Made by a program: the position numbers and the translations under genes
Shown: positions 15,744-61,665 of the stretch, in pieces
Layout of the letters: each line of letters begins with the position of its first letter
Numbering within the stretch: the first letter of the stretch is position 1
Source: an uncultured Candidatus Saccharibacteria bacterium
GTDB lineage: Bacteria > Patescibacteriota > Minisyncoccia > Portnoybacterales > UBA2143
DNA: 64,000 nucleotides
Assembly (NCBI GenBank): GCA_964413015.1
Contig: CAYPQZ010000006.1
Span: 74,415-138,414, forward strand
Direction: 5' to 3'
Notes under the pieces: generated by a model
Database searches by the model: none
What the model saw: only the letters and a program-made list of their open reading frames with translations
What the model was told of the DNA's origin: nothing

Positions 15744-16883
15744 ATGCGCGTCTCTTATTCCGGGCTGGAAACCTTTGTTAACTGTCCGGCTAAATATAAG
15801 TTTCAATATGTAGAACGGATAAAAGTTCCCAAGTTAAAGGAAGCGATTTTCGGCACTTTAATTCATGAGTGTTTAAAGATGTTCCACGAACCGAGCCAGA
15901 CAGATTATGTCTCTGAGGAGAAATTGCTCAAATATTTTACGGAAAGATGGAACAGCGAGATTTACCAAGATAAACAGGAAGAGGCCTTTGCCTTCCATCA
16001 GGGAATTAAAATTCTTAAGGATTACTACTTACAAAATCAAAGCTCTGAATTTAATATTATTAATTTAGAGACACCTTTTGAAGCTCCTGTTTTGGATGGG
16101 GCGGAACTTCACCAAATTACCGGACGCATAGACCGGATTGACAAATTAGAAGACGGAACCTTTGAAATAATTGACTACAAAACGAGCAAGAAAATGCCTT
16201 CTCAAGAAGACGTTAATCAGAATTTCCAGTTAGCAATTTATTATCTGGGAGTTATTAATCGCTGGCCTTCTTTAAAAAAACAGAATCGTCCGGTTAAACT
16301 GTCTTTGTATTATTTAAGGCATGGGGAAAAGCTTTCCGCTTTTCAGAATGCTGAAAAAGTTAAGGAAACCAGGCAGAAAATTTTATCTATAATCGACCAA
16401 ATTAAAAAAAGCTCTTTTGAGCCAAGAATGAATTCGTTATGCGACTGGTGCTCCTATCAGCCCTACTGCCCTCTTTTTAAGCATAAGCATTTAATCCATC
16501 AGCCAACAGCCAATGATGAACAAATTAAGGACGTAATTAAGGAATATTTTGAAATCAAGGATAAACAAATGACAAATAACCGGCGTTCGGCTGAATTAAA
16601 AGAAATTATTAACCGGTACTGCGATGAGAATGAAATAGACAGAATTTTCGGAGAGATTGGCTATCTGACTCGTCTGCCCCAGCAAAGATTTTCCTATAAC
16701 TTTAACCAAGTTAAAGAAATCTTAGAGCCGCTTGGCAAATGGAATCAGGTTTTAACCATTGATAAAGTAAAATTCAAAAAAGTCATTGATTCGTTGCCGT
16801 ATGATATTAAAAGGCAGATTGACCAGACCAAAACTCTGGAAAAAGAATTCAAGGTTATAACGGTTAAGAAAATTAAGAAATAG
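15744..16883 (+). CDS. PD-(D/E)XK nuclease, Cas4/RecB-like with Fe-S Cys cluster
   Basis: N-terminal LETFVNCPAKYKF, GRIDRID...EIIDYKTSKK, QLAIYYL and C-terminal CDWCSYQPYC. No CRISPR is present in the window. Confidence 0.6.
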   Translation: MRVSYSGLETFVNCPAKYKFQYVERIKVPKLKEAIFGTLIHECLKMFHEPSQTDYVSEEKLLKYFTERWNSEIYQDKQEEAFAFHQGIKILKDYYLQNQSSEFNIINLETPFEAPVLDGAELHQITGRIDRIDKLEDGTFEIIDYKTSKKMPSQEDVNQNFQLAIYYLGVINRWPSLKKQNRPVKLSLYYLRHGEKLSAFQNAEKVKETRQKILSIIDQIKKSSFEPRMNSLCDWCSYQPYCPLFKHKHLIHQPTANDEQIKDVIKEYFEIKDKQMTNNRRSAELKEIINRYCDENEIDRIFGEIGYLTRLPQQRFSYNFNQVKEILEPLGKWNQVLTIDKVKFKKVIDSLPYDIKRQIDQTKTLEKEFKVITVKKIKK

Positions 16884-16912
16884 ATTTGAGACGTCCAACG
16901 TCTCAAATCCCA
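16884..16912. terminator. Bidirectional rho-independent terminator hairpin
   Basis: gatttgagacg-tccaa-cgtctcaaatc is a perfect 11-bp stem followed by a T/A run. It lies between convergent genes. Confidence 0.6.
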
Positions 16913-16915
16913 ATT

Positions 16916-17338
16916 TTAGTTGTTCGGTCTGTATTTTTCAAAATTGCCGCATGGGGCATAGCCGGCCGTCTGGGCTTCAGCTTCCGAATCAAACCAGATT
17001 TGGTTTTGAGGAGCAATTTTCTTAGCCCAAGGGCATTCGGGCCAATGGTATTTACTGCTGTTAACACTGCCAACAAGTTTCCCCTGCTCTTTCGTTGTGT
17101 CTTCAGTCGCATTTTCTCCAGAGTCAAATTTTGAGGCTTGAATAACTGAGGCCGAAGGATTTTGAATAACAATTGGCTTAATGTCTGCTTGAAGCGCGGT
17201 TAACCGGCCGGCGCCGAAACTGATTAAGGCGATTAAAATAATGCCGATGGTCAGAATAATATCCGACTCGTTATCCCCCGCCCATCGTTGAAGTTTTTTG
17301 GCATTTGGGTTGACGATCCTTTTTAAATCGGCTATCAT
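16916..17338 (-). CDS. Membrane-anchored protein with Ada-N-terminal-like Cys-rich (zinc-binding-like) domain
   Basis: One TM helix. The C-terminal [11 protein letters not shown]...[16 protein letters not shown] resembles the Ada Zn-binding fold (FCRPSC...SEALAAGFRPCKRC) but lacks the fourth Cys. Confidence 0.4.
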
Positions 17339-17344
17339 ATCTTT

Positions 17345-17617
17345 ATGAGTAAAACAAAATCGGCCGGATCAACTTCGCTCGGCCGTGATTCTCAACCAAA
17401 ATATCTTGGAGTCAAGTTATTTGGCGGTCAGCTGACCCAACCAGGCAGCATTATTGTTCGCCAACGAGGCACCAGGTTTTTGCCAGGCAAGAACGTCCGC
17501 CGGGGCAAAGACGACACCCTTTACGCTATAACTAAAGGAGTTGTTAAGTTTATTACCAAAAAAATTAAGCGCTTTGACGGTTCTCACAGAACCGCCAAAA
17601 TAGTTAATGTGGAATAA
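17345..17617 (+). CDS. rpmA: 50S ribosomal protein L27
   Basis: [19 protein letters not shown]...GKDDTLYA is the L27 signature. Confidence 0.9.
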
Positions 17618-29518: not shown

Positions 29519-29580
29519 AAAGGACAGTCCTTAAAATTGTACTCCTTGGAATAAGGATGTAATTTTAAAGACTGTCCTTT
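29519..29580. repeat. Family-A hairpin repeat (imperfect variant)
   Basis: aaggacagtccttaaaattgtactccttggaataaggatgtaattttaaagactgtcctt. Confidence 0.8.
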
Positions 29581-31698: not shown

Positions 31699-31873
31699 TC
31701 AACCCAGTAGAAGAATTTTGAAACAAATTTTAACAAAGTTAAAATTTAAATTAAAAATATTCAAAATTTCTCTACTGGGTCAACCCAGAAGAAGAATTTT
31801 GAAATAAATTTTAACAAAGTTAAAATTTAAATTAAAAATATTCAAAATTTCTCTACTGGGTCAACCCAGAATC
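31699..31873. repeat. Family-B element, tandem 81-bp direct repeat x2.15 (cccagtag variant); each unit is a ~20-bp inverted-repeat hairpin
   Basis: Units 31699..31779 and 31780..31860 plus a partial third, of the form tcaacccagtagaagaattttgaaa...ttcaaaatttctctactggg. Confidence 0.85.
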
Positions 31874-32803
31874 TTTTTCATGGGCCAATTCATCTAATCC
31901 TAACATCTCCATCTTCTGATTATATCTTTCTAAAGTTTCTTTTTCCGGCGAATCTGGATGGAACTCCAATTGCTGGTCATTAAAAATTACCCGTCCGCCA
32001 GCCCGATAAGTCAGCGGATCTTTCCTTATCCGTTGTGCCTGAAACTTCCTTAAAAGAAATTCTACTCCATCTCCTATTTTATTGTCAAGTATAAACTCTC
32101 TGGATTTTCTAAAAAAGGAAAAAAGAAAATGACTTTTGATTGTTTTTAAAAATCCTTTTTGGCCAATTGGATAAAAAGCCAAATAATCTTTAATCCATTG
32201 ATTAGCCCGTTGAAATTTTTTATCTAAATCTGGCTCGGCCTGCCAAACCGGAATTAAATGAGCATAAGTTTGAGCATTATACAGGCTGAAAAGAGGAATC
32301 CCTAAGGATTGGGTGGTGATATAGTGATTTAGGCAGAATCGATTTTCGGTCAGTTGGCCGTGCCTCCGCCGGCCGAGCAAATGGATAAACAAAGTTGTCA
32401 AAGCCCGGCAGGTCCAAATGCGACCGGCGCGGGTAACGATTAACAAATCTATGTCCGATTCTTTCCTTGGATTATTCATAGCCAAAGAGCCGCTTAACAT
32501 GACCAAACGGATAAAAGGAATATTTTGAATCAGCTTTATTGTCCAGCGCGCTTTTTTCCAGCGCTGGTCAGCCAGTTTCTGTCTTTCAATTCTTTGATCA
32601 GCTAAGCGGCTCTGGCCTTTTAAAAAATAGAAGCCGTTTTTTTGCTCTATTCCAGGATGATTTTCTAAAGCATCCAAGATTCTCTTTAATTTTATCGGCT
32701 GACATCTGGTTAGATATCTAAAAACCTCCCAGCCAGTCAAAGGCCGTTCCAAAACATCATAATAAGCCAAAGTAGCTAAAATTGATTTTTCCAAGTCAGC
32801 CAT
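31853..32803 (-). CDS. Nucleotidyltransferase-fold protein, hypothetical
   Basis: GS-x10-DIDLLIV is a minimal nucleotidyltransferase motif. The last 6 codons and the stop are supplied by the tandem repeat. Confidence 0.45.
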   Translation of the reverse strand: MADLEKSILATLAYYDVLERPLTGWEVFRYLTRCQPIKLKRILDALENHPGIEQKNGFYFLKGQSRLADQRIERQKLADQRWKKARWTIKLIQNIPFIRLVMLSGSLAMNNPRKESDIDLLIVTRAGRIWTCRALTTLFIHLLGRRRHGQLTENRFCLNHYITTQSLGIPLFSLYNAQTYAHLIPVWQAEPDLDKKFQRANQWIKDYLAFYPIGQKGFLKTIKSHFLFSFFRKSREFILDNKIGDGVEFLLRKFQAQRIRKDPLTYRAGGRVIFNDQQLEFHPDSPEKETLERYNQKMEMLGLDELAHEKDSGLTQ

Positions 32804-32839: not shown

Positions 32840-32900
32840 AAGGACAGTCCTTAAAATGATGTTCCTTAAGCACAAAGACGTCATTTTAAAGACTGTTCTT
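32840..32900. repeat. Family-A hairpin repeat
   Basis: aaaggacagtccttaaaatgatgttccttaagcacaaagacgtcattttaaagactgttctt. Confidence 0.8.
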
Positions 32901-33504: not shown

Positions 33505-33605
33505 AATACGGTTCTTAAATTTTGATAAGGATAAGCAGATAAGGACAGTCTTTAAAATGATATCCCTTGAGCACAAGGGCGTCATTTTAAAGACTGTCCT
33601 TTAAC
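33505..33605. repeat. Family-A repeat (R-hairpin with partial spacer)
   Basis: cttaaattttgataagg...ataaggacagtctttaaaatgatatcccttgagcacaagggcgtcattttaaagactgtcctt. Confidence 0.85.
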
Positions 33606-42651: not shown

Positions 42652-42728
42652 TTTTCTTCTCCTCTAAGATTTAAATTTAAAGAACTAAATATAATCTACT
42701 CTATAATTTTTAATTAATCAAGGGCGAG

Positions 42729-42856
42729 CCCCGTAGAGAAATTTTGAAACATTCGCCTAGGCGAATAATAAACGGGGTAAAAAATAAGTACACGAATAAA
42801 AAGAGTTCCGAATAATTAAAAATTAGTGAATTTAAATTCAAAATTCTTCTACGGGG
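42729..42856. repeat. Family-B element (TIR ccccgtagagaaattttgaa ... ttcaaaattcttctacgggg)
   Basis: About 128 bp. The right TIR overlaps the first 3 nt of tRNA-Leu. gggcgag is found on both flanks. Confidence 0.8.
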
Positions 42857-42936
42857 CGAGTGGTGAAATGGCAAACACGCTAGCTTCAGGAGCTAGTGGA
42901 GGCAACTCCTTGCGGGTTCAAATCCCGCCTCGCCCA
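42854..42936 (+). tRNA. tRNA-Leu (anticodon CAG), long variable arm
   Basis: Acceptor GGGCGAG/CTCGCCC, anticodon arm CTAGC-TTCAGGA-GCTAG, variable arm TGGAGGCAACTCCTT, T-arm GCGGG-TTCAAAT-CCCGC. Confidence 0.85.
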
Positions 42937-43011
42937 CGCGTTTTTTATCCAAAACTTGTTTTGGGTATAAAAAACAGTGTCCGCCTCTGTCGGACTATAA
43001 ACAGCAACTTT

Positions 43012-45387: not shown

Positions 45388-45462
45388 AATCTCAGTTCTT
45401 TATTTTAATTAATCTAAAAATCATAAAAGTCCCGGACGAACGGGGCTTTTATGATTAAAAAA

Positions 45463-45580
45463 AAGACAGTCCTTAAAATGATGTCCCTTGAGCACAAAGG
45501 CGTCATTTTAAAGACTGTCCTTATCAGTTTCCCCTTGTCAAAATTTAAATCCTTAAATTTTTAAACTGTCCTTTAACTAA
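45463..45580. repeat. Family-A repeat (R-hairpin plus spacer and short end module)
   Basis: gacagtccttaaaatgatgtcccttgagcacaaaggcgtcattttaaagactgtcctt...ccccttgtcaaaatttaaatccttaaatttttaaactgtccttt. Confidence 0.85.
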
Positions 45581-46894: not shown

Positions 46895-47608
46895 TTATTC
46901 TTCTTTCCCGATGCCTTCAGGTTGGGGCCTCGATTTTAGATCGGGGCTTTCTTCGTCTCTGGCCTCTTCCCTCTTTTCCTCCTCAACCTGTTCAATTTCT
47001 TCAACCGGCGCCTCTTCAAGTTCTTCCAATTCAGCCTTGGTTCTAGGCGGAACAACCGAAGCAACTACTTCTTTATCTTCGGCTGTTATTTCTGCTCTTG
47101 CCGGAATCTTTAAATCTTTAACATAGATGTTGTCGTCAAAGGTTTTTAAACAAGAAATATCCACTTCAATTTCTCGAGGCAAATCCAGCGGCAAGGCTTT
47201 TACTTCAATTGAGTTAAAGTTCTTAATCAACACGCCGCCTTCACGGTCAACTGCCAACGATTTACCATTAAAAACTAGAGGAACTTCCGTAGTAATCGGT
47301 TCATCCATTTTAACCTGGTAAAAATCAACGTGGATAATTTTGTCGCTAACCGGATCTTTATCAAGGCTGTGAATTAAAACTATCCTTTCTTTTTTGCCTG
47401 CTGTAGATTCTCCTCTCTCCAGATCAAGCTTGATTAAAGCGCTTTCCCCGGCTTTTTGATAAACTTTTTTAAAATCTTTTTGTTTTATCGATAAAAGCAA
47501 GTTTTTCACTTTATGCCCATACAAAATAGCCGGAATTATGCCTTGCTTCCGAATTTGCTTATTCTGACGGCCGGTCGCTGACCGCAACTGAGCTAATAGT
47601 TCTAACAT
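46895..47608 (-). CDS. rplY: 50S ribosomal protein L25 / general stress protein Ctc
   Basis: LRSATGRQNKQIRKQGIIPAILYG, with an acidic C-terminal extension. Confidence 0.85.
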   Translation of the reverse strand: MLELLAQLRSATGRQNKQIRKQGIIPAILYGHKVKNLLLSIKQKDFKKVYQKAGESALIKLDLERGESTAGKKERIVLIHSLDKDPVSDKIIHVDFYQVKMDEPITTEVPLVFNGKSLAVDREGGVLIKNFNSIEVKALPLDLPREIEVDISCLKTFDDNIYVKDLKIPARAEITAEDKEVVASVVPPRTKAELEELEEAPVEEIEQVEEEKREEARDEESPDLKSRPQPEGIGKEE

Positions 47609-47659
47609 ATTGACTATTCTAACTAAAAAACCACCTCGGGTCAAGGATTCAGCATAATT

Positions 47660-47826
47660 AAAGGACAGTCCTTAAAATGATGTCCCTTGAGCACAAGGGC
47701 GTCATTTTAAAGACTGTCCTTATCTGCTCCCCTTTGTCAAAATTTAAGGAGTCGTCCTTTCAAACACGCCCTTCGCAATTCTGCAAAGGGACGTGACTCT
47801 CAATGACAATCCTTAAATTTTTTAAT
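47660..47826. repeat. Family-A modular repeat, full copy in inverted orientation (R hairpin ... L-module)
   Basis: aaggacagtccttaaaatgatgtcccttgagcacaagggcgtcattttaaagactgtcctt...tcaaaatttaaggagtcgtcctttc...gacgtgactctcaatgacaatccttaaatttt. Confidence 0.85.
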
Positions 47827-47831
47827 GAACC

Positions 47832-48020
47832 TTACTCTTCCTTCTCAATCGCCTGAACTGGACAGATGTCTATAGCTTCTTGGACGCATTGGTCGTCTGC
47901 ATCTTCTTTCCCCTCTTTAATATGCGCTTTATTTTCGTTATCCATTTCAAAAACATCCGGGCAAACAGCTGTACAGCTGCCACAACCAAGACATTTTTCT
48001 TTGTCTATTTTTATACTCAT
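47832..48020 (-). CDS. 4Fe-4S ferredoxin (single-cluster type)
   Basis: CLGCGSCTAVCP...C pattern in a 62-aa protein. Confidence 0.7.
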   Translation of the reverse strand: MSIKIDKEKCLGCGSCTAVCPDVFEMDNENKAHIKEGKEDADDQCVQEAIDICPVQAIEKEE

Positions 48021-48022
48021 AC

Positions 48023-48158
48023 ACCGTAGAAGAATTTTGAATTTTAATCAATAACATTGATTAATAATCTAAGATTCTTCCTTATTTAATTATTCCTATA
48101 TACCCCGTTTTATTAAATTAAATATTTAATTTAATTATTTCAAAATTTCTCTACGGGG
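48023..48158. repeat. Family-B element (TIR caccgtagaagaattttgaa ... ttcaaaatttctctacgggg) with TCATA direct repeats on both flanks
   Basis: It fills the entire fdx-fba intergenic region. The left TCATA (48017..48021) carries the fdx start codon and the right TCATA (48159..48163) carries the fba stop codon. Confidence 0.85.
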
Positions 48159-49025
48159 TCATAATCTGTTATTGCTTTTAAATAATTTAATTTTTTCTTC
48201 AACGACCTTTTGGACCGTTTCGACTACCGACGGCATTATTTTATAAGGAGTAGTCTGTTTGGGATTCTCCTTTAGAAATTTCCTGAGCGCCTTGGCATAA
48301 GCAAGACGCAATTCCGTATTTACATTAATTTTAACGATTCCCGATTCAACAGCTTTCTGAATATCGTCTTCCGGAGTACCAGAGCCTCCATGAAGAACTA
48401 AAAAGACTTCTTTGCCTAAAACGCTATTGATTTCTTTTAGACGGTCTATGAAAAGATGAGGGTTGCCGGAAATATCATTCTTCTTAATAATTCCATGGAT
48501 ATTGCCAATAGCTATTGCTAAGCTTGTCACTCCTGTATTTTTAATAAATTCCTTGGCCTGCTTCGGCTTTGTCAAATCCTCTTCTTTGATTTCCATTGAT
48601 TCTTGCAAAGACGAACTGCCCCTTAAATAACCAATTTCACCTTCAACGTTTTGAATCCCTTTCCCCTTAGCTAAATTAACCACTTTCTTGGTCATCTTTA
48701 TGTTTTCCTCAAAGCTTAATTCTGAGCCGTCAAACTGGACAGAATCGTATCCGCTTTCAACCGCTTTTTGAATAATCTCCCATGACTTGCCGTGATCCAG
48801 ATGTAAAAAGATTGGCAAGCCGGTTTCTTTTTTGTAAACATTAATTAAAGCTCTAATCTGTCTTACTCCAATAAAATTACTTTCCCCTTGGGAAGTAGCG
48901 ACAATAACCGGACTTTCTAATTTTTGAGCAGCCTGAACAATCGCTTTCACTTGCTCTAAATTAGAGACATTAAAAGCCCCGATGGCATAATGATTAGTTT
49001 GCGCTTTTTTGAATACGTCTAACAT
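48159..49025 (-). CDS. fba: Fructose-bisphosphate aldolase class II
   Basis: Class II FBA pattern with HLDHG and VLHGGSG. Confidence 0.9.
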   Translation of the reverse strand: MLDVFKKAQTNHYAIGAFNVSNLEQVKAIVQAAQKLESPVIVATSQGESNFIGVRQIRALINVYKKETGLPIFLHLDHGKSWEIIQKAVESGYDSVQFDGSELSFEENIKMTKKVVNLAKGKGIQNVEGEIGYLRGSSSLQESMEIKEEDLTKPKQAKEFIKNTGVTSLAIAIGNIHGIIKKNDISGNPHLFIDRLKEINSVLGKEVFLVLHGGSGTPEDDIQKAVESGIVKINVNTELRLAYAKALRKFLKENPKQTTPYKIMPSVVETVQKVVEEKIKLFKSNNRL

Positions 49026-49033
49026 ATTTTTGA

Positions 49034-50299
49034 CTATTTGGGGACTGTTCCCAAAGTAACATAACCTTTATCTAAATTTTCCATCAGAGTTTTATCCAAC
49101 ATTTTTTCTCCCGCATATTCAATAAAAATTTTATTCCAAAGCGCTTCCGGCTGATGGTAAAGATACCTGTAATTAAAGTCCTTTTGATGAAGAAGTGAAA
49201 TCCCGTTATCAAATAAATCGAAACTGATTAAAGACTCTTGCCCGGAAGCATCAGAAAAATATTCGGCCAGAACATCTGAACCACGCCAAAAATCAAATCC
49301 CGAGTCAGGAAACTTTTGACTGAATTTATCAATACAGACAGCCGCTCTAGTATAATGCCAGGCCTCCGGACTGATATGGGGTTCGGCCAGCCTGGGATCG
49401 TCAGGATTCTTTTTGTCTAAATAGGCCGGCATCATCCGCCAACTCATTTTATTGCTATTAGGCAAGGGCATGTCGCTAACTTGGACTTTCAAAGCTTCGG
49501 TCATTTTATGAACAAAATCCCTTTCCTGGCTGTATTTTTCAAAAAGACGAGCGTGCCAGTCAACTTCGTAAGTATAGTGAAGTGTCATAAAAAAGTAATA
49601 TAGAGATTCATTAGGACGATCTTTAATCACCGGAATAATAAAAACAACGCCGACTTCCTTCAAATGGCTCATGTGATGGAATTTCTTTTCTAAAAATTCT
49701 TGCCCTTTGCCTGACCATCTTTTTGGCAAAACCATTATTCTAATCGGCCTTTTTTCAAAATCATCCTTTGTTAAATAAGTGTAGGCCTTAAAAAAAACCT
49801 TGTTCAGCCAATCGCCGTCTTCAACAAAACGCAAGGCGCAAAAAAGTTCAAAAACATCTTCTTTGTCTAGCATTTCATCAATCTTGTCTTCGTATCCCAG
49901 AATTCCCATAATTTTTTTAGGCGGGTTCAATCTGAACAATTCTTTAAGTTTCTCTTCTTTAATAAAAAAATCCGATAGATTACCAGTTAAATCTTTTATG
50001 GCGCTGATAAAATCCCGACAATCATCCGGATCGGAAAGATTAAACTGATTAAAATGGTTAAAAAGAAACTGGTTATTTTGCTTAGCTTTCTCAATTAAAG
50101 ATTGATAAATATCTTCAGCTTTTGAATTCCTGTCTAATCCTAAAATGGCCAATTTCTGGTCAATTTTAGAGTCATTCTCCTGAACAATTTTTTCAATTAT
50201 ATCCCTTTTGCCGAAAATTTCAGACATTTTATTTTCCAGATTCAAAATAACTTCTTCAGGAGCCCCCAATATTTTAGCTAATTTAGTAACTGGATTCAT
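49034..50299 (-). CDS. Hypothetical protein (421 aa) embedded in the glycolysis/PPP operon
   Basis: No motif I can assign. It is conserved-looking and sits between the pfkB kinase and fba. The start is taken at MNPVTK, directly after the pfkB stop. Confidence 0.4.
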   Translation of the reverse strand: MNPVTKLAKILGAPEEVILNLENKMSEIFGKRDIIEKIVQENDSKIDQKLAILGLDRNSKAEDIYQSLIEKAKQNNQFLFNHFNQFNLSDPDDCRDFISAIKDLTGNLSDFFIKEEKLKELFRLNPPKKIMGILGYEDKIDEMLDKEDVFELFCALRFVEDGDWLNKVFFKAYTYLTKDDFEKRPIRIMVLPKRWSGKGQEFLEKKFHHMSHLKEVGVVFIIPVIKDRPNESLYYFFMTLHYTYEVDWHARLFEKYSQERDFVHKMTEALKVQVSDMPLPNSNKMSWRMMPAYLDKKNPDDPRLAEPHISPEAWHYTRAAVCIDKFSQKFPDSGFDFWRGSDVLAEYFSDASGQESLISFDLFDNGISLLHQKDFNYRYLYHQPEALWNKIFIEYAGEKMLDKTLMENLDKGYVTLGTVPK

Positions 50300-51279
50300 A
50301 ATATTTCCACTTCCACCTTCTCCCATTCTCCCCATTCGCCTTTTTTAAGCAATCCGTTAGTCGCTCCCATTTTTTGTAAACAGGCAGTGGCATTAGCGGT
50401 GCCTAATTGGATAGCATGAGTAATATCGCCTTTGTCAATATATCCGGAGACAAAAGCGGCGCCGAAAGAATCACCGGCGCCAGTCCGATCGACCAGACCG
50501 GATTCCGGAATCCCGGCCGAATATAAGTTTTTACCGTCCGAAACGGTCACTCCGAGAGGGCCTTTATTCATAACCACAATTCCCTCAACCCATTCATCTA
50601 ATTTCTGAAAAATTTCTTTTTCTTTTTTAAAATCAATTCCAGTTAATTTAGACGATTCTTCCTGGTTAAGGATTAAAATATCAAGCTTATTAAGCACCGA
50701 CTTAAGGATTTCAGTATGCTCCGGCGTTTTAACGCTTCCTGCTGGATTAGAGGCTATTTTAATCCCGTTTTTCTTGCCAAAATCAACTAAAGGAACTAAC
50801 ATTTGATGGCTTTTATTAGATAAGGAAGAAACATAAAACCAGTCAGCTTTAAGTTCATCAAAAGGGATATCTTTCTCGGTTAATTCATGGCAAGCTCCAT
50901 ATTTTTCCAAGATGCTCCGGCCTTGGTCAGGCGCTGAGAGAATTACTGAAAAAGCGGTCGGAAACTTGTCTGATTCGACTAACAAATCAAGGCAAACTTG
51001 GTGTTGTCCCAATTCTTTTTTTACTTCCTGACCAAAAACATCCCGGCCAATCATGCCGTAATAGGCAGTTTTTAATCCCTGCTCGGCAAAACTGACCGCG
51101 CTGTTGGTCCCGCAGCCTCCCATAGTAAAAAGCACATCATCCATGTGCATTTTTGAGCCTAAAGGGATACAAAGTCCTTTCTTAGTGAAAAATTTTTCAT
51201 CCTCAACTATTTCTAACTTCCGGCTGCTCATGAAAATATCCAGAGTTGCCGAACCGAAAGTGATGATGTCGTAATTCAT
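50296..51279 (-). CDS. PfkB-family carbohydrate kinase (ribokinase/minor PFK-like)
   Basis: N-terminal GG di-glycine region and C-terminal GAGDSFGAAF. Confidence 0.75.
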   Translation of the reverse strand: MNYDIITFGSATLDIFMSSRKLEIVEDEKFFTKKGLCIPLGSKMHMDDVLFTMGGCGTNSAVSFAEQGLKTAYYGMIGRDVFGQEVKKELGQHQVCLDLLVESDKFPTAFSVILSAPDQGRSILEKYGACHELTEKDIPFDELKADWFYVSSLSNKSHQMLVPLVDFGKKNGIKIASNPAGSVKTPEHTEILKSVLNKLDILILNQEESSKLTGIDFKKEKEIFQKLDEWVEGIVVMNKGPLGVTVSDGKNLYSAGIPESGLVDRTGAGDSFGAAFVSGYIDKGDITHAIQLGTANATACLQKMGATNGLLKKGEWGEWEKVEVEIL

Positions 51280-53417: not shown

Positions 53418-54050
53418 TTAATGACATATTTTTAAATCTTCAATTGCTTTTCTAGGATTGTCGCTTTTAAAAATTGCGCTGCCGCTAGCTAAAAGATTGG
53501 CCCCGGCCCGGATAACCAACGGAGCGGTTTTTGGGTTTATGCCCCCATCCACTTCTATATTAACATCTTTATACTTCTTTCGCAATTGCTTAATTTTCCC
53601 CAGAGTTTCTTCTATCAAATCTTGGCCTCCCTGGCCGGGATTGACTGTCATAACTAAAACCAAATCAAGGTCTTGGATAAAGTTATCCACTGTTTCTATC
53701 GGCGTTTCTGGACTAATCGCCAAGCCGAATTCCAGGCCGGCTTGTTTAATCTTTTTTATTATTTCTTTGTGCTGGTTCGTTGATTCATAATGGATAATAA
53801 TTCGCTCAACTCCAGAATCAATCCACTGGTCAACTTCTTCTTCAGGATTCCGGACCATTAAATGAACCTCTATATTCAAATCGGTTTCCAAATCTTTTAA
53901 CTCAATCGGATCGCCCCAAGTTTGATTATTTACAAAATGACCGTCCATTACGTCTAACTGTACCCAATCAACATATGGCTCTACTTTCTTTATTCTGGAC
54001 TTCAACTCCTCAAAGCTTTCAACCATGATAACAGGGATAATCTGAATCAT
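53418..54050 (-). CDS. rpe: Ribulose-phosphate 3-epimerase
   Basis: LDVMDGHFV, MTVNPGQGGQ and VDGGIN. Confidence 0.9.
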   Translation of the reverse strand: MIQIIPVIMVESFEELKSRIKKVEPYVDWVQLDVMDGHFVNNQTWGDPIELKDLETDLNIEVHLMVRNPEEEVDQWIDSGVERIIIHYESTNQHKEIIKKIKQAGLEFGLAISPETPIETVDNFIQDLDLVLVMTVNPGQGGQDLIEETLGKIKQLRKKYKDVNIEVDGGINPKTAPLVIRAGANLLASGSAIFKSDNPRKAIEDLKICH

Positions 54051-54484
54051 TGTTCCATTTCCTCTATTTTATTTAATCTTCTAACATGTCTTTCATCGCC
54101 GCTAAATTCTGTTTTTATCCAGATCCGGACAATTTTCTTGGCAGTCTCTGAATCCACTATTTTACTCCCCAGACAAAGTACATTGGCATTATTATGTTCC
54201 CTTGACTGTAAAGCGGTAAAATCATCCCAGCAAACGGCTGCCCGGACTCCTTTCATTTTATTAGCCGCCATGGCCATGCCAAATCCAGTAGCGCAAATTA
54301 AAATCCCTTGCCCGTTATTTTCAACTGTTTTTTCAGCTACTGCTGAAGCAAAATCAGGATAGTCATCCTCCAATTCCAACTTTTTATTCCCTAAATCTTC
54401 ATATTCATGCCCTAATTCCTCAAGATATTTCTTGAGTTCTTCCTTTAGATTAAAACCGGCATGGTCAGCGCCTAAATAAATCAT
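54047..54484 (-). CDS. rpiB: Ribose-5-phosphate isomerase B
   Basis: MIYLGADHAGF..K and CATGFGMAMAANK. Confidence 0.9.
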   Translation of the reverse strand: MIYLGADHAGFNLKEELKKYLEELGHEYEDLGNKKLELEDDYPDFASAVAEKTVENNGQGILICATGFGMAMAANKMKGVRAAVCWDDFTALQSREHNNANVLCLGSKIVDSETAKKIVRIWIKTEFSGDERHVRRLNKIEEMEQ

Positions 54485-54485
54485 A

Positions 54486-54621
54486 CCCCGTAGAAGAATT
54501 TTGAATTCTAATCAATTTTATCGATTAGCAATCTAAAAAATTTTCACTTAATTATTTATAGAACGCCCCGTTTTATTAAATTAAATCAAAGATTTAATTG
54601 TTTCAAAATTTCTCTACGGGG
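54486..54621. repeat. Family-B element (TIR ccccgtagaagaattttgaa ... ttcaaaatttctctacgggg) with TCATA direct repeats on both flanks
   Basis: It fills the rpiB-gap intergenic region. The left TCATA (54481..54485) contains the rpiB start and the right TCATA (54622..54626) contains the gap stop. Confidence 0.85.
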
Positions 54622-55602
54622 TCATAGTTTTTTCCCAATAAACTCTGCAAATTCAGCCAAGCGGCAGGCGTATCCATATTCATTATCATACCAGGCCAAA
54701 ACCTTAACCAATTTTTTCTCTTGAACCATGGTTGAAGCCGCATCAACAATTGCGGAGAAAGAACTCCCTTTGTAATCAACCGAAACTAATGGACTTTCTT
54801 CAACTCTTAAAATCCCTTTTAAATTATCCTGTTCTGAGGCCTTTTTAAAAGCAATGTTAATTCCTTCAACATCCGTTTCTTTTTTAACTTTAGCTACAAA
54901 ATCAACCAACGAAACAACCGGGGTAGGAACCCTTATGGCCAAACCGTGAATTTTGCCTTTTAGTTCAGGGATTGTTTTTATTACAGCAATTGCTGCTCCA
55001 GTAGTCGTCGGGACCATTGACAGGGCCGCTGAACGAGCCCGGCGCAAATCCTTTCGATGAGGAGAATCCAAAAGCTTCTGGTCATTGGTATAACTATGGA
55101 TCGCAGTCATTAAACCGGACTCTATCTCGAATTCCTGATGAAGAATATTGGCTATAGGAGCCAGACAATTAGTCGTACATGACGCCATAGAGACAATATT
55201 ATCTTTTTCAGGGTTATAATTTTCTTGGTTAACGCCTAAAACAAAATGAGGCATAGCCTCACTTTTAGAAGGAGCTGAAATAATAACTTTTTTAGCTCCA
55301 GCTGATAAATGTTTTTGGGCATCTTCTATTTTGGTAAACAGGCCGGTGCATTCCAGGACCACATCCACTTCCATTTTCCCCCACGGCAGCTTAGCCGGAT
55401 CTTTTTCAGCTAAAACTTTATCTTCCGGTAAAGGATTCTCATATTTTCCGTAAACCGAATCATATTTTAATAGATGAGCCAAAGTTTTGGCGTCGGTTAA
55501 ATCATTAATCGCGACTATCTCTAAATTCGGATGTTTGTCCAGAATCCTACGAAAAACTGGCCGGCCAATTCGGCCAAACCCATTAATTGCGATTTTAATC
55601 AT
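54622..55602 (-). CDS. gap: Glyceraldehyde-3-phosphate dehydrogenase
   Basis: INGFGRIGR and ASCTTNCLAP. Confidence 0.95.
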   Translation of the reverse strand: MIKIAINGFGRIGRPVFRRILDKHPNLEIVAINDLTDAKTLAHLLKYDSVYGKYENPLPEDKVLAEKDPAKLPWGKMEVDVVLECTGLFTKIEDAQKHLSAGAKKVIISAPSKSEAMPHFVLGVNQENYNPEKDNIVSMASCTTNCLAPIANILHQEFEIESGLMTAIHSYTNDQKLLDSPHRKDLRRARSAALSMVPTTTGAAIAVIKTIPELKGKIHGLAIRVPTPVVSLVDFVAKVKKETDVEGINIAFKKASEQDNLKGILRVEESPLVSVDYKGSSFSAIVDAASTMVQEKKLVKVLAWYDNEYGYACRLAEFAEFIGKKL

Positions 55603-58662: not shown

Positions 58663-59343
58663 CTAATTGTTAAGCTTTTCTTCGATGATTTTTTCAAAGC
58701 TGTCATACGTCAGAGCGCCAACAACTTTCTGTCCGTTAATTAAGAAAGTTGGCGTTCCCTCAACACCATCTTCATTGGATTTCAAAAACCATCCTCTGAC
58801 AACTTCTTCGTGCTCGCCTGAATCAAAACACTGATTAAATTTATCCTGATTTAGCTCCAAATCCCCAGCTGCTTTTTTTAACGAATCAACTACCATAGTT
58901 TCCGCTTCTTCAGCAGAGCTTGCTTGGTTTATTTGCTCAAGAATTTCGTTAATATGCTCAAAAAGATATTCATCAAATTCCCAAAAACCCTTTTGATCTC
59001 CGGCGCAAAGAACCGCTATGCCCAGAATTGAAGGAGAAACGATCCGATGAACAAACTTAACTTGCCCTTCTTTAACGTACTTATCAATAATCAAAGGTAG
59101 AGTTTCTGAATGGAATTTAGCGCAGTATCCACACAAATGACTGGAGTATTCAATAATATCTACTGGCGCGTCTTTGTCGCCTAAAATAAATTCGTCGGTT
59201 AATTCAACCGGAGAATCGCTGGTAGCGTCAGTAATTGAAGCTGTCTGGTTATCAACTGGTTGTTTTCCCCAATTGGCATACCAAACAATACCCGCTAAAA
59301 CTAAAATTGCTCCAAAACCTAAAATGTATGTTTTTTTATTCAT
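58663..59343 (-). CDS. DsbA-like thiol:disulfide oxidoreductase, membrane-anchored
   Basis: CGYC active site in a thioredoxin fold with an N-terminal anchor. The start is taken at MNKKTYI. Confidence 0.65.
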   Translation of the reverse strand: MNKKTYILGFGAILVLAGIVWYANWGKQPVDNQTASITDATSDSPVELTDEFILGDKDAPVDIIEYSSHLCGYCAKFHSETLPLIIDKYVKEGQVKFVHRIVSPSILGIAVLCAGDQKGFWEFDEYLFEHINEILEQINQASSAEEAETMVVDSLKKAAGDLELNQDKFNQCFDSGEHEEVVRGWFLKSNEDGVEGTPTFLINGQKVVGALTYDSFEKIIEEKLNN

Positions 59344-59478
59344 GCCCCGTAGAAGAACTTTGACATTCACCTTAAATATCAAAATCTTAATTAATGTTTT
59401 TAATTTATTCTGTGTTTATACACCCCGTATGTCTATTTATTCGCCTTGGGCGAATGAGTCAAAGTTTCTCTACGGGGC
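59344..59478. repeat. Family-B element (TIR gccccgtagaagaactttga ... tcaaagtttctctacggggc)
   Basis: Lies between the dsbA-like start and the mtaD-like stop. The internal palindrome ttcgccttgggcgaa is shared with the 42729 copy. Confidence 0.8.
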
Positions 59479-61439: not shown

Positions 61440-61665
61440 AAAGGACAGTCCTTAAAATGATGTCCCTTGGGATAAGGACTATGATAAGGACAGTCCTTAA
61501 AATGATGTCCCTTGAGCACAAGGGCGTCATTTTAAAGACTGTTCTTATCAGTTTCCCTTTATCAAAATTTAAGGAGTCGTCCTTTCCCTCCAGAGACGGG
61601 CAGGCGGACACGCCCTTTGCCTTCTGTAAAGGGCGTGATCCTCAATGACAATCCTTAAATTTTTC
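61440..61665. repeat. Family-A modular repeat, full copy with duplicated half-hairpin (inverted orientation)
   Basis: aaggacagtccttaaaatgatgtcccttgg... then a full hairpin, then ...tcaaaatttaaggagtcgtcctttccctccagagacggg...gggcgtgatcctcaatgacaatccttaaattttt. Confidence 0.85.

Follow-up and report, generated by a model that had tools for sequence, protein, structure and literature searches.

An inverted-repeat insertion in the fba/fdx overlap of a Patescibacteria genome and its probable GIY-YIG-encoding relative

We analyzed a 64,000-nucleotide stretch of DNA (the window) from an uncultured Candidatus Saccharibacteria bacterium (GenBank assembly GCA_964413015.1, contig CAYPQZ010000006.1, positions 74,415 to 138,414 of the forward strand). 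The subject is copy B, a 137-bp inverted-repeat element between the genes for class II fructose-bisphosphate aldolase (fba) and a 4Fe-4S ferredoxin (fdx). Comparison with relatives showed that copy B is a lineage-specific insertion into the ATGA overlap of the two genes and that the 5-bp sequence TATGA was duplicated. We consider copy B to be a non-autonomous derivative of an undescribed GIY-YIG-associated element, with a probability of about 0.72; its mobilization and its tolerance by the host are what we infer from the comparisons below.

Insertion of copy B at the fba/fdx junction

Both genes lie on the minus strand, with fba upstream (48159 to 49025; 288 aa, PF01116) and fdx downstream (47832 to 48020; 62 aa, from the list of open reading frames (ORFs) and a domain match). 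On the plus strand the junction reads TCATA (48017 to 48021), element (48022 to 48158) and TCATA (48159 to 48163), the repeats being TATGA in gene sense. The left repeat holds the fdx start codon (CAT, 48018 to 48020) and the right repeat the fba stop codon (TCA, 48159 to 48161), and the 138-nt gap between the two ORFs was entirely taken up by copy B. No ORF of at least 40 aa was listed as contained within 48022 to 48158. The plus-strand arms are CACCGTAGAAGAATTTTGAA (left end) and TTCAAAATTTCTCTACGGGG (right end), and a repeat search on copy B gave arms of 21 nt with 86% complementarity and 97 nt in between. Copy B is co-directional with fba and fdx on the minus strand, so that in gene sense the GAGAAA-type 5' arm, CCCCGTAGAGAAATTTTGAA (48139 to 48158), comes first and the 3' arm, TTCAAAATTCTTCTACGGTG (48022 to 48041), last. 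The two arms pair over 20 bp apart from mismatches, namely the family-wide G·T plus A·C at positions 10-11 and an extra C·T at position 2. The initial annotation had described a TCATA-flanked insert here, with 20-bp terminal inverted repeats and with the fdx ATG and the fba TGA inside the left and right repeats; the sequence and the ORF list bore this out, with an element length of 137 bp.

The same annotation had predicted that related genomes would retain an empty junction with one TCATA and an overlapping ATGA, and such junctions were found at three loci. In L142, where Fba was 84% identical, fba (1316-2185) and fdx (2182-2370) meet at aaatatTTATGAagatt; in L145 and L146, where it was 75% identical, the junction is aataaaTTATGAaaatt. 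All three had a 4-nt fba/fdx overlap (ATGA), a single TTATGA and no insert, and the arm motif was absent anywhere in their fba-fdx loci. The window junction is aacagaTTATGA, the element and TATGAgtataaaa, and deletion of copy B plus one TATGA restores the ATGA overlap. The closest relatives with an empty site stood at 75-84% Fba identity and were not strains of the same species; three other assemblies encoded an identical Fba, and the insert was present in all three. The element was also absent from these junctions in L093, L105 and L120 (Fba 45-65% identical). The annotation had allowed that the TCATA-flanked sequence might be shared by relatives as a structured intercistronic RNA, and we found relatives without the element instead. 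With TATGA duplicated, the insertion recreated both signals, so that the fba TGA now stands on one side of copy B and the fdx ATG on the other.

Two further pairs of filled and empty sites were found. At the junction that carries copy C in the window, L144 was empty (ggaaaaaaacTATGAtttatttaggagctgaccatgc) and the window was filled (gggaaaaaacTATGA, 136 bp, TATGAtttatttaggcgctgaccatgc); L144 had a single TATGA, and the flanks were near-identical, as they were for the fba/fdx pairs. At the gene for ribosomal protein L25 the window was the empty member (TAGAATagtcaaTATGTTAGAA), and the filled member, TAGAATaagagTATG, 141 bp and TATGTTAGAA, with TATG duplicated, came from the metagenome-assembled genome (MAG) JAHJUH01. 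The L25 promoter in the window reads TTGACC-17-TAGAAT-agtcaa-TATGTTAGAA without an element; in JAHJUH01 the same promoter is followed by TATG, the 141-bp element and then TATGTTAGAA.

Several observations adjoin these comparisons. Many genes seem to start in leaderless fashion, a -10-like box preceding the ATG by 5-8 nt (L25 at 47608-47650, minus strand: TTGACC-17-TAGAAT-6-TATG), and at filled sites the entire element becomes the 5' leader. The ORF call at 46895-47644 extends 36 nt beyond the ATG at 47608. In L087 (about 610-705 of that locus; JAHJUH010000013.1, minus strand) the fba/fdx junction holds a different inverted-repeat element, AAGGTCCGACCTTAAAAACCCTAACC...GGTTAGGGGTTTTAAGGTCGGACCTT; the junction has been struck independently by two element families.

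Copies, target sites and structure of the family

The arm core CCGTAGAGAAATTTTGAA, with at most 3 mismatches, had 11 matches in the window against 0.21 expected, a count reached in 0 of 100 shuffles, and copy B is therefore not a chance palindrome. These matches define five loci, one of which is a tandem dimer. Copy C (136 bp, 54486 to 54621, minus strand) lies between gap (54622 to 55602) and rpiB (54047 to 54484), with TCATA at 54481-54485 and 54622-54626; as in copy B, one repeat holds the upstream TGA and the other the downstream ATG. Since the identical TCATA pair flanks copy C as well, TCATA is not an arbitrary 5-mer target, a point on which we correct the initial annotation. Copy D (133 bp, diverged; 59345 to 59477, minus strand) stands directly upstream of an ATG at 59341-59343; the ORF call at 58663-59382 has a TTG start and extends into its arm, upstream of the likely true ATG. 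Copy A (128 bp, 42729 to 42856, plus strand) is flanked by (GGG)CGAG repeats, and the three G at its end are also where tRNA-Leu(CAG) (42854-42937) begins. GGGCGAG is repeated to the left of copy A (42722-42728), the G's of the tRNA gene lying at 42854-42856, and the insertion seems to have hit the start of the acceptor stem and to have regenerated it. Copy E (31703 to 31860, minus strand) is a tandem dimer of a short 77-bp form (units 31703-31779 and 31784-31860) with compensated ends, CCCAG..CTGGG, and with TCAA repeats that flank and separate the units. An ORF at 31853 to 32803 (minus strand) takes its TAG stop from the copy E arm, and a stray CCCAGAA follows the last unit. Other copies without any flanking direct repeats, which the annotation had named as evidence against insertion, were not what our search of the window returned: repeats flanked the other copies, and only those of copy D were imperfect. 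The arms were non-identical in every window copy, one being GTAGAGAAA and the reverse complement of the other GTAGAAGAA, and this asymmetry gives the element a defined orientation. It agreed with the direction of the flanking genes at 5 of 5 window loci.

A GTDB scan with the right arm returned 88 loci. Matches to both arms came from 18 assemblies besides the window, nearly all labelled Patescibacteria or its lineages (Parcubacteria, Paceibacterales, Magasanikiibacteriota, Nealsonbacteria, Minisyncoccales, and Third Party Annotation MAGs labelled Saccharibacteria). Genomes clearly outside the Candidate Phyla Radiation (CPR) gave lone arms only, as chance expects. A phage or plasmid origin found no support: the arm pattern had 0 matches in IMG/VR, and blastn of the element against PLSDB gave none. 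By arm asymmetry we oriented 76 unique copies from the 18 assemblies plus the window. TATG, the T-ATG of the gene, stood directly downstream in 42 of the 76, and the opposite orientation occurred in 3; these 3 all had a variant arm pair, the polarity of which differs among nuclease-bearing elements too (L124 versus L136). Upstream, the 42 copies were flanked by TATG (29), ATGA (8), CATG (2) or a closely similar sequence. An ORF of at least 100 codons was opened by 35 of the 39 downstream flanking TATG sites that could be evaluated, against 7.8% of the 2856 TATG sites in the same DNA. Long forms of about 120-145 bp stood nearly always immediately upstream of T-ATG, with TATG or TATGA on both sides. 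These counts showed that TATG(A) is a near-universal and orientation-specific site of the long form at start codons generally, and not just at ATGA overlaps. Short forms of about 72-83 bp had varied repeats (TTGA, TCAA, CTTTG, TTTTA, CAAG, TCCA) and no clear orientation bias.

Genes preceded by elements were unrelated to one another, and other elements adjoined a tRNA gene or were tandem or nested. A variant short element was nested in the hairpin of a main-type element at L025 (about 1720-1861), two elements were parted only by TA at L081 (2030-2315), and adjacent or overlapping units occurred at L018 (3116-3339). Upstream genes ended at the TGA of ATGA or within the arm, at TAG (+5) or TGA (+16). 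The 5' arm of copy B has both of these stops, and two reading frames out of three are closed by them. Ahead of the upstream TATG there was often a GGAG or, at a distance of 5-8 nt, a -10-like box, as at the L25 gene. The upstream TATG is thus the original start-codon context, and the element parts the gene from its initiation signals.

Among 69 distinct arm pairs the stem was exactly 20 base pairs long, with 93.6% of cells paired and position 21 unpaired. Compensatory changes occurred at 7 pairs (83 cells), which 0 of 500 shuffles matched, and stem position 20 showed all four Watson-Crick pair types. Positions 10-11 were G·T plus A·C in 68 of the 69 copies, with the polarity reversed in the remaining one. 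Just inside the 5' arm copy B has a perfect subterminal hairpin of 12+12 nt (48112 to 48135), of which the family keeps the structure and not the sequence. Of 37 long copies, 35 folded locally a few nt inward of the 5' arm, 26 of them with z below -2; the folds were mostly perfect 6-12-bp stems, with 32 different core-hairpin strings. A folded single strand, whether DNA or RNA, is favored, though not proven, by the conserved mismatch and by a hairpin that is kept without its sequence. Further inside copy B are an ACGGGGT motif (sense; 48102 to 48108), which is conserved in long copies and resembles the 3' end plus flank (ACGGGG followed by T), and a second local hairpin adjoining the 3' arm (48036 to 48072), with 17-nt arms that are 82% complementary. 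In the sense RNA of copy B the terminal stem closes beside the UGA and the AUG (-30.6 kcal/mol, z = -3.5).

At gathering thresholds Rfam matched only tRNAs in the whole window, and the best Rfam 15 match to the element at E up to 10 was mir-3047 (14.8 bits versus 53 required). A promoter scan of 47800-48400 gave 3 promoter-like sites against 1.8 expected, and in the element no above-chance promoter and no terminator. A promoter-like TTGAAN-17-TAATAA seen by eye over the 5' arm and hairpin was inconsistent across copies. We also rejected an assignment of the strand under selection from C·A versus U·G at stem position 4, which was confounded by shared ancestry in one MAG.

A GIY-YIG-encoding partner and how the elements may move

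At L017, L049, L069 and L084 the arms were about 300-355 bp apart and enclosed one sense ORF, starting 2-8 nt past the 5' arm. The sole ORF of this long element of about 300-360 bp was an intact GIY-YIG nuclease of 86-92 aa. Arms bracketed a GIY-YIG ORF in 8 of 8 cases examined (the four above and L124, L133, L136 and L141). All eight ORFs were intact, sense-oriented and mutually 66-81% identical, and the ATG of the next gene lay 0-1 nt past the 3' arm. When we searched for arm pairs enclosing a larger ORF, GIY-YIG was the only ORF found among the loci examined. L136 and L141 share arms and have proteins that are 80% identical, other pairs being 66-81% identical, a weak signal of co-evolution between arm and protein. 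L084 and L081 also hold two GIY-YIG paralogues that are more distant and are not flanked by these arms. L049, from the copy-rich JAHJUH01, had TATG on both sides, as the miniature copies have. Three miniatures of the same genome (L071, L056 and L013) share with L049 the 5' arm and the last ~65 nt, non-arm sequence included. Judged by this shared sequence, the miniature copies in JAHJUH01 are internal-deletion derivatives of the GIY-YIG element.

The ORF matched PF01541 (E = 2.6e-17; cut-off 22.6 bits), and Y3, Y5, Y16, G18, R26, N31 and E50 were invariant across 40 homologues. A protein search returned more than 2400 GIY-YIG homologues. The top 120, with 71-100% identity and lengths of 82-152 aa (86-100 aa in most), came from Moranbacteria, Buchananbacteria, Doudnabacteria and Paceibacterota, and were named 'GIY-YIG nuclease family protein', with one 'excinuclease ABC subunit C'. 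We fetched the contexts of four homologues, and each was bracketed by arm variants and (T)ATG repeats; the genes that follow include gvpG, ruvA and one that comes after aspartyl-tRNA synthetase. The AlphaFold model of the nuclease had a predicted local distance difference test score (pLDDT) of 90, and its best fold matches were UPF0213 BH0048 and the nuclease domain of Slx1, followed by I-TevI; sequence matches in the PDB were 1ywl and 1zg2. The protein is the catalytic core alone (87 aa), with no added DNA-binding domain.

On the reading that we prefer, the miniature copies would be non-autonomous and moved in trans by the GIY-YIG nuclease. The nuclease may recognize a hairpin or cruciform made by the arms, the conserved G·T plus A·C mismatch would mark the polarity of that structure, and integration would take place at a 4-5-nt staggered break or by microhomology at TATG(A). 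The preference for site and orientation is probably at least partly mechanistic. With lower confidence we propose three reasons why the host may tolerate inserts at start codons. The duplication would restore the ATG. The 5' arm stops (TAG +5, TGA +16) could serve upstream genes that had formerly overlapped the start. In the mRNA, the 20-bp stem would return the old stop or ribosome-binding signals to within a few nt of the displaced AUG. To terminate at the fba UGA, a ribosome would have to melt the 5' arm, which would free the region just upstream of the fdx AUG; by the footprint of a ribosome on mRNA, roughly the first 12-13 nt of the arm would be melted at the UGA (a rough figure). The translational coupling of fba and fdx may thus largely survive. 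Two other routes to the downstream AUG were rejected. Read-through from the upstream ATG into the gene did not fit lengths that are not constant modulo 3 and AT-rich sequence that stops early, and in coupling through an upstream ORF, the short ORF from the upstream ATG ended far from the downstream AUG (for example, 12 codons in L010).

A number of points weigh against this account. GIY-YIG nucleases hydrolyse DNA, and to our knowledge they are not known for strand transfer; known members leave overhangs of 1-2 nt, not 4-5. The 64-kb window held no GIY-YIG homologue, and no Shine-Dalgarno sequence lies near the displaced fdx AUG. The repeat flanking copy D is imperfect (CATG on one side and CAGG on the other, plus strand), and across the family the flanking repeats vary from 3 to 6 bp in length and, in short forms, in sequence. 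A single protein that binds the two ends as duplex DNA would make the arms covary as well, so that covariation is no proof of a hairpin. The bias in start codon and orientation could come from purifying selection and not from the insertion mechanism. Our scan covered one genome per GTDB species and required an exact right (3') arm, which biased retrieval, and 37 of the 76 copies came from the retrieved parts of a single MAG, JAHJUH01, so that the counts are not independent.

Copy B is unlikely to be an ordinary miniature inverted-repeat transposable element (MITE) moved by an unsampled conventional transposase, such as a DDE enzyme giving 4-5-bp duplications, with the GIY-YIG gene as cargo or as an invading homing endonuclease gene. 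In its favor, DDE transposition is typically recognized by terminal inverted repeats with a target duplication, 5-bp duplications are made by several insertion sequence (IS) and Tn3-type families, and the more distant GIY-YIG paralogues in L084 and L081 lack these arms. This explanation must, however, account for GIY-YIG as the sole ORF between paired arms at the loci examined, for its same position and orientation between arms in 8 of 8 ORFs of the clade from different CPR lineages, and for miniatures that are deletion derivatives of that very element. A strict 42:3 orientation on an asymmetric target would also be unusual for DDE elements whose ends are equivalent.

We give still less credence to homing or double-strand-break repair, in which the GIY-YIG enzyme would cut an empty T-ATG and a filled site would be copied into it by repair primed by microhomology, TATG being the microhomology and not a duplication from a staggered cut. 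GIY-YIG enzymes are classic homing endonucleases, I-TevI was among the fold matches, the repeats vary over 3-6 bp and they look subfamily-specific (TATG in long copies, often TTGA in short ones). Homing, however, depends on long stretches of homology on either side of the site, and unrelated target genes do not provide them; the protein has no DNA-binding domain beyond its 87-aa catalytic core and has SLX1 and UPF0213, not I-TevI, as its best structural relatives. Least probable is a host-functional intercistronic RNA (an RNase III site, an mRNA stabilizer, or a coupling or attenuation device) with the border repeats as part of the unit: constant co-orientation with flanking genes, covariation in the stem and subterminal hairpin, an internal ACGGGG that could pair alternatively with the 5' CCCCGU and a sense RNA that folds better than shuffles all suit it, but the nearest relatives retain a plain ATGA overlap at the orthologous junctions, copies precede unrelated genes, adjoin a tRNA or occur tandem or nested, Rfam gave no match, and the long form carries a nuclease gene. 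A secondary, exapted host role of the element is possible.

If elements derived from a GIY-YIG parent behave as we propose, mobilization by such a nuclease would be a new catalytic class in bacterial transposition, and a role would be found for the 'GIY-YIG nuclease family protein' genes that are widespread in Patescibacteria and so far unexplained. Patescibacteria have tiny, densely packed genomes that are generally thought to be transposon-poor, and start codons and stop/start overlaps are about the only places where such genomes can take 140 bp without losing a gene. Dozens of genes, those for ribosomal protein L25 and ruvA among them, have an element between the start codon and its promoter or ribosome-binding site, and so offer a natural test of translation initiation in uncultured Patescibacteria. 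The elements will also mislead gene callers: several window ORFs were extended into arms, and automatic annotation of such genomes will put starts in the wrong place beside elements.

Neighboring features and relation to known systems

Other features of the window were noted alongside. A second, unrelated palindromic family consists of intergenic units of about 60 nt, AAGGACAGTCCTT ... AAAGACTGTCCTT, with 38 matches against 2.6 expected; sites include 47661-47721, 1617-1674, 29520-29579, 32840-32900, 33541-33601, 45462-45522, 61441-61546 and others, and two units occupy much of the fdx/L25 spacer. This is probably the 'family A' of the initial annotation. A 433-aa ORF at 49034-50335, between pfkB and fba, has no Pfam match and is an uncharacterized member of the sugar-phosphate operon; in relatives it is conserved and syntenic, with 37-57% identity in L093 and L101, the two in which we detected it. 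The NCBI entry for the exact window Fba (protein P0121, 48159-49025) is a hypothetical protein assigned to 'Firmicutes bacterium ML8_F2'; since all relatives and the gene context are Patescibacteria, the MAG or contig behind it was probably mis-assigned. At about 16000-17500 the GC skew changes sign and genes converge (plus strand before ~16.9 kb, minus strand after), and this region looks like a replication terminus. A block of plus-strand genes at 39.3-45.4 kb has near-zero or positive skew, as if locally inverted.

By its terminal inverted repeats, its target duplication proven by empty sites and its small, non-coding, multi-copy nature, the element fits a MITE, which is a known kind. A longer element with the same ends, from which the miniatures derive, exists; its sole ORF encodes a GIY-YIG nuclease, which is not a known transposase and is a candidate mobilizing enzyme. 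Correia/NEMIS of Neisseria, RUP of pneumococci and ERIC of enterobacteria are likewise about 100-150 bp long and present in many copies, with inverted repeats and target duplications; they are intergenic, co-transcribed, can form a long mRNA hairpin and are deletion derivatives that share ends with a longer element. Our element resembles them in size, ends, duplication and deletion-derivative nature. They are tied to DDE transposases (IS630- or IS5-like), with TA duplications in Correia, and the element differs from them all in its GIY-YIG partner, its TATG(A) duplication and its oriented insertion essentially at start codons. A MITE of the IS630/Tc1-mariner type duplicates TA, and we found TATG(A) or other 3-6-mers. 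Tn3-derived TIMEs have repeats of about 38 bp starting GGGG; copies B and C share a 5-bp duplication with them, and their repeats are 20 bp and read CCCCG outside.

IS200/IS605 with its miniatures and REP/RAYT have hairpin ends, a strict 4-5-nt target, oriented insertion and tiny, abundant non-autonomous copies, and the element is like them in its hairpin-forming ends, fixed 4-5-nt motif, orientation specificity and small size. Those systems use an HUH Y1 transposase and have a subterminal hairpin at each end, no terminal inverted repeats and no target duplication. The ends of our element, unlike their separate subterminal hairpins, pair with each other, and its inverted repeats and duplication do not fit a derivative of IS200/IS605 or REP; no HUH ORF was seen between arms. 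Integron attC sites are likewise imperfect inverted repeats at ORF boundaries, and their conserved unpaired bases set the polarity of recombination in a folded single strand. The RYYYAAC/GTTRRRY cores of attC do not occur at the ends of the element (CCCCGTAG...CTACGGGG), there is no integrase and no cassette array, and the comparison of empty with filled sites shows a duplication of the kind that transposons leave, unlike attC.

Free-standing GIY-YIG genes such as seg/mob of phage T4 and I-TevI of the td intron are selfish and wedged between host genes, as is the GIY-YIG gene that is the only gene of the long element. Their proteins have a DNA-binding domain of their own, their spread is confined to homologous alleles, and we know of none with terminal inverted repeats or target duplication. 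The core-only length of 86-92 aa, the target duplication and the unrelated target genes speak against a free-standing GIY-YIG homing endonuclease here. The partner ORF, which lies outside the window, has the conserved Tyr, Tyr, Arg, Glu and Asn of the GIY-YIG superfamily and is closest to SLX1/UPF0213 (YhbQ-like; 1ywl, 1zg2, and Slx1 6sei/7cq2/7cq3), a distant likeness (E about 1e-3; 25-36% identity where the folds align). A hairpin-ended element would suit Slx1, whose substrates are branched and stem-loop DNA; SLX1/UPF0213 are structure-specific endonucleases that serve in housekeeping repair and are not known to be multi-copy or to lie between inverted repeats. For the host side, the T4 gene 38 and MS2 coat-replicase systems offer a parallel, in which a hairpin keeps initiation signals or a stop adjacent to the AUG, or an upstream ribosome opens the hairpin; as a reason for tolerance this likeness is purely one of analogy.

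The literature that we found, PMC12455944 included, describes no such element, within a coverage that was incomplete. New with respect to that literature are the host range, the enzyme that the long form encodes, and the specificity for TATG at start codons in one orientation. As a tentative proposal, one that we hold somewhat short of even odds, these features may define a new class of prokaryotic transposable element, in which an 87-aa GIY-YIG nuclease of the SLX1/UPF0213 type is the sole gene, the 20-bp arms form a hairpin or cruciform intermediate with a mismatch, insertion is oriented at T-ATG, an RNA hairpin keeps the inserts harmless by rejoining the parted signals to the AUG, and copy B is a non-autonomous offspring.

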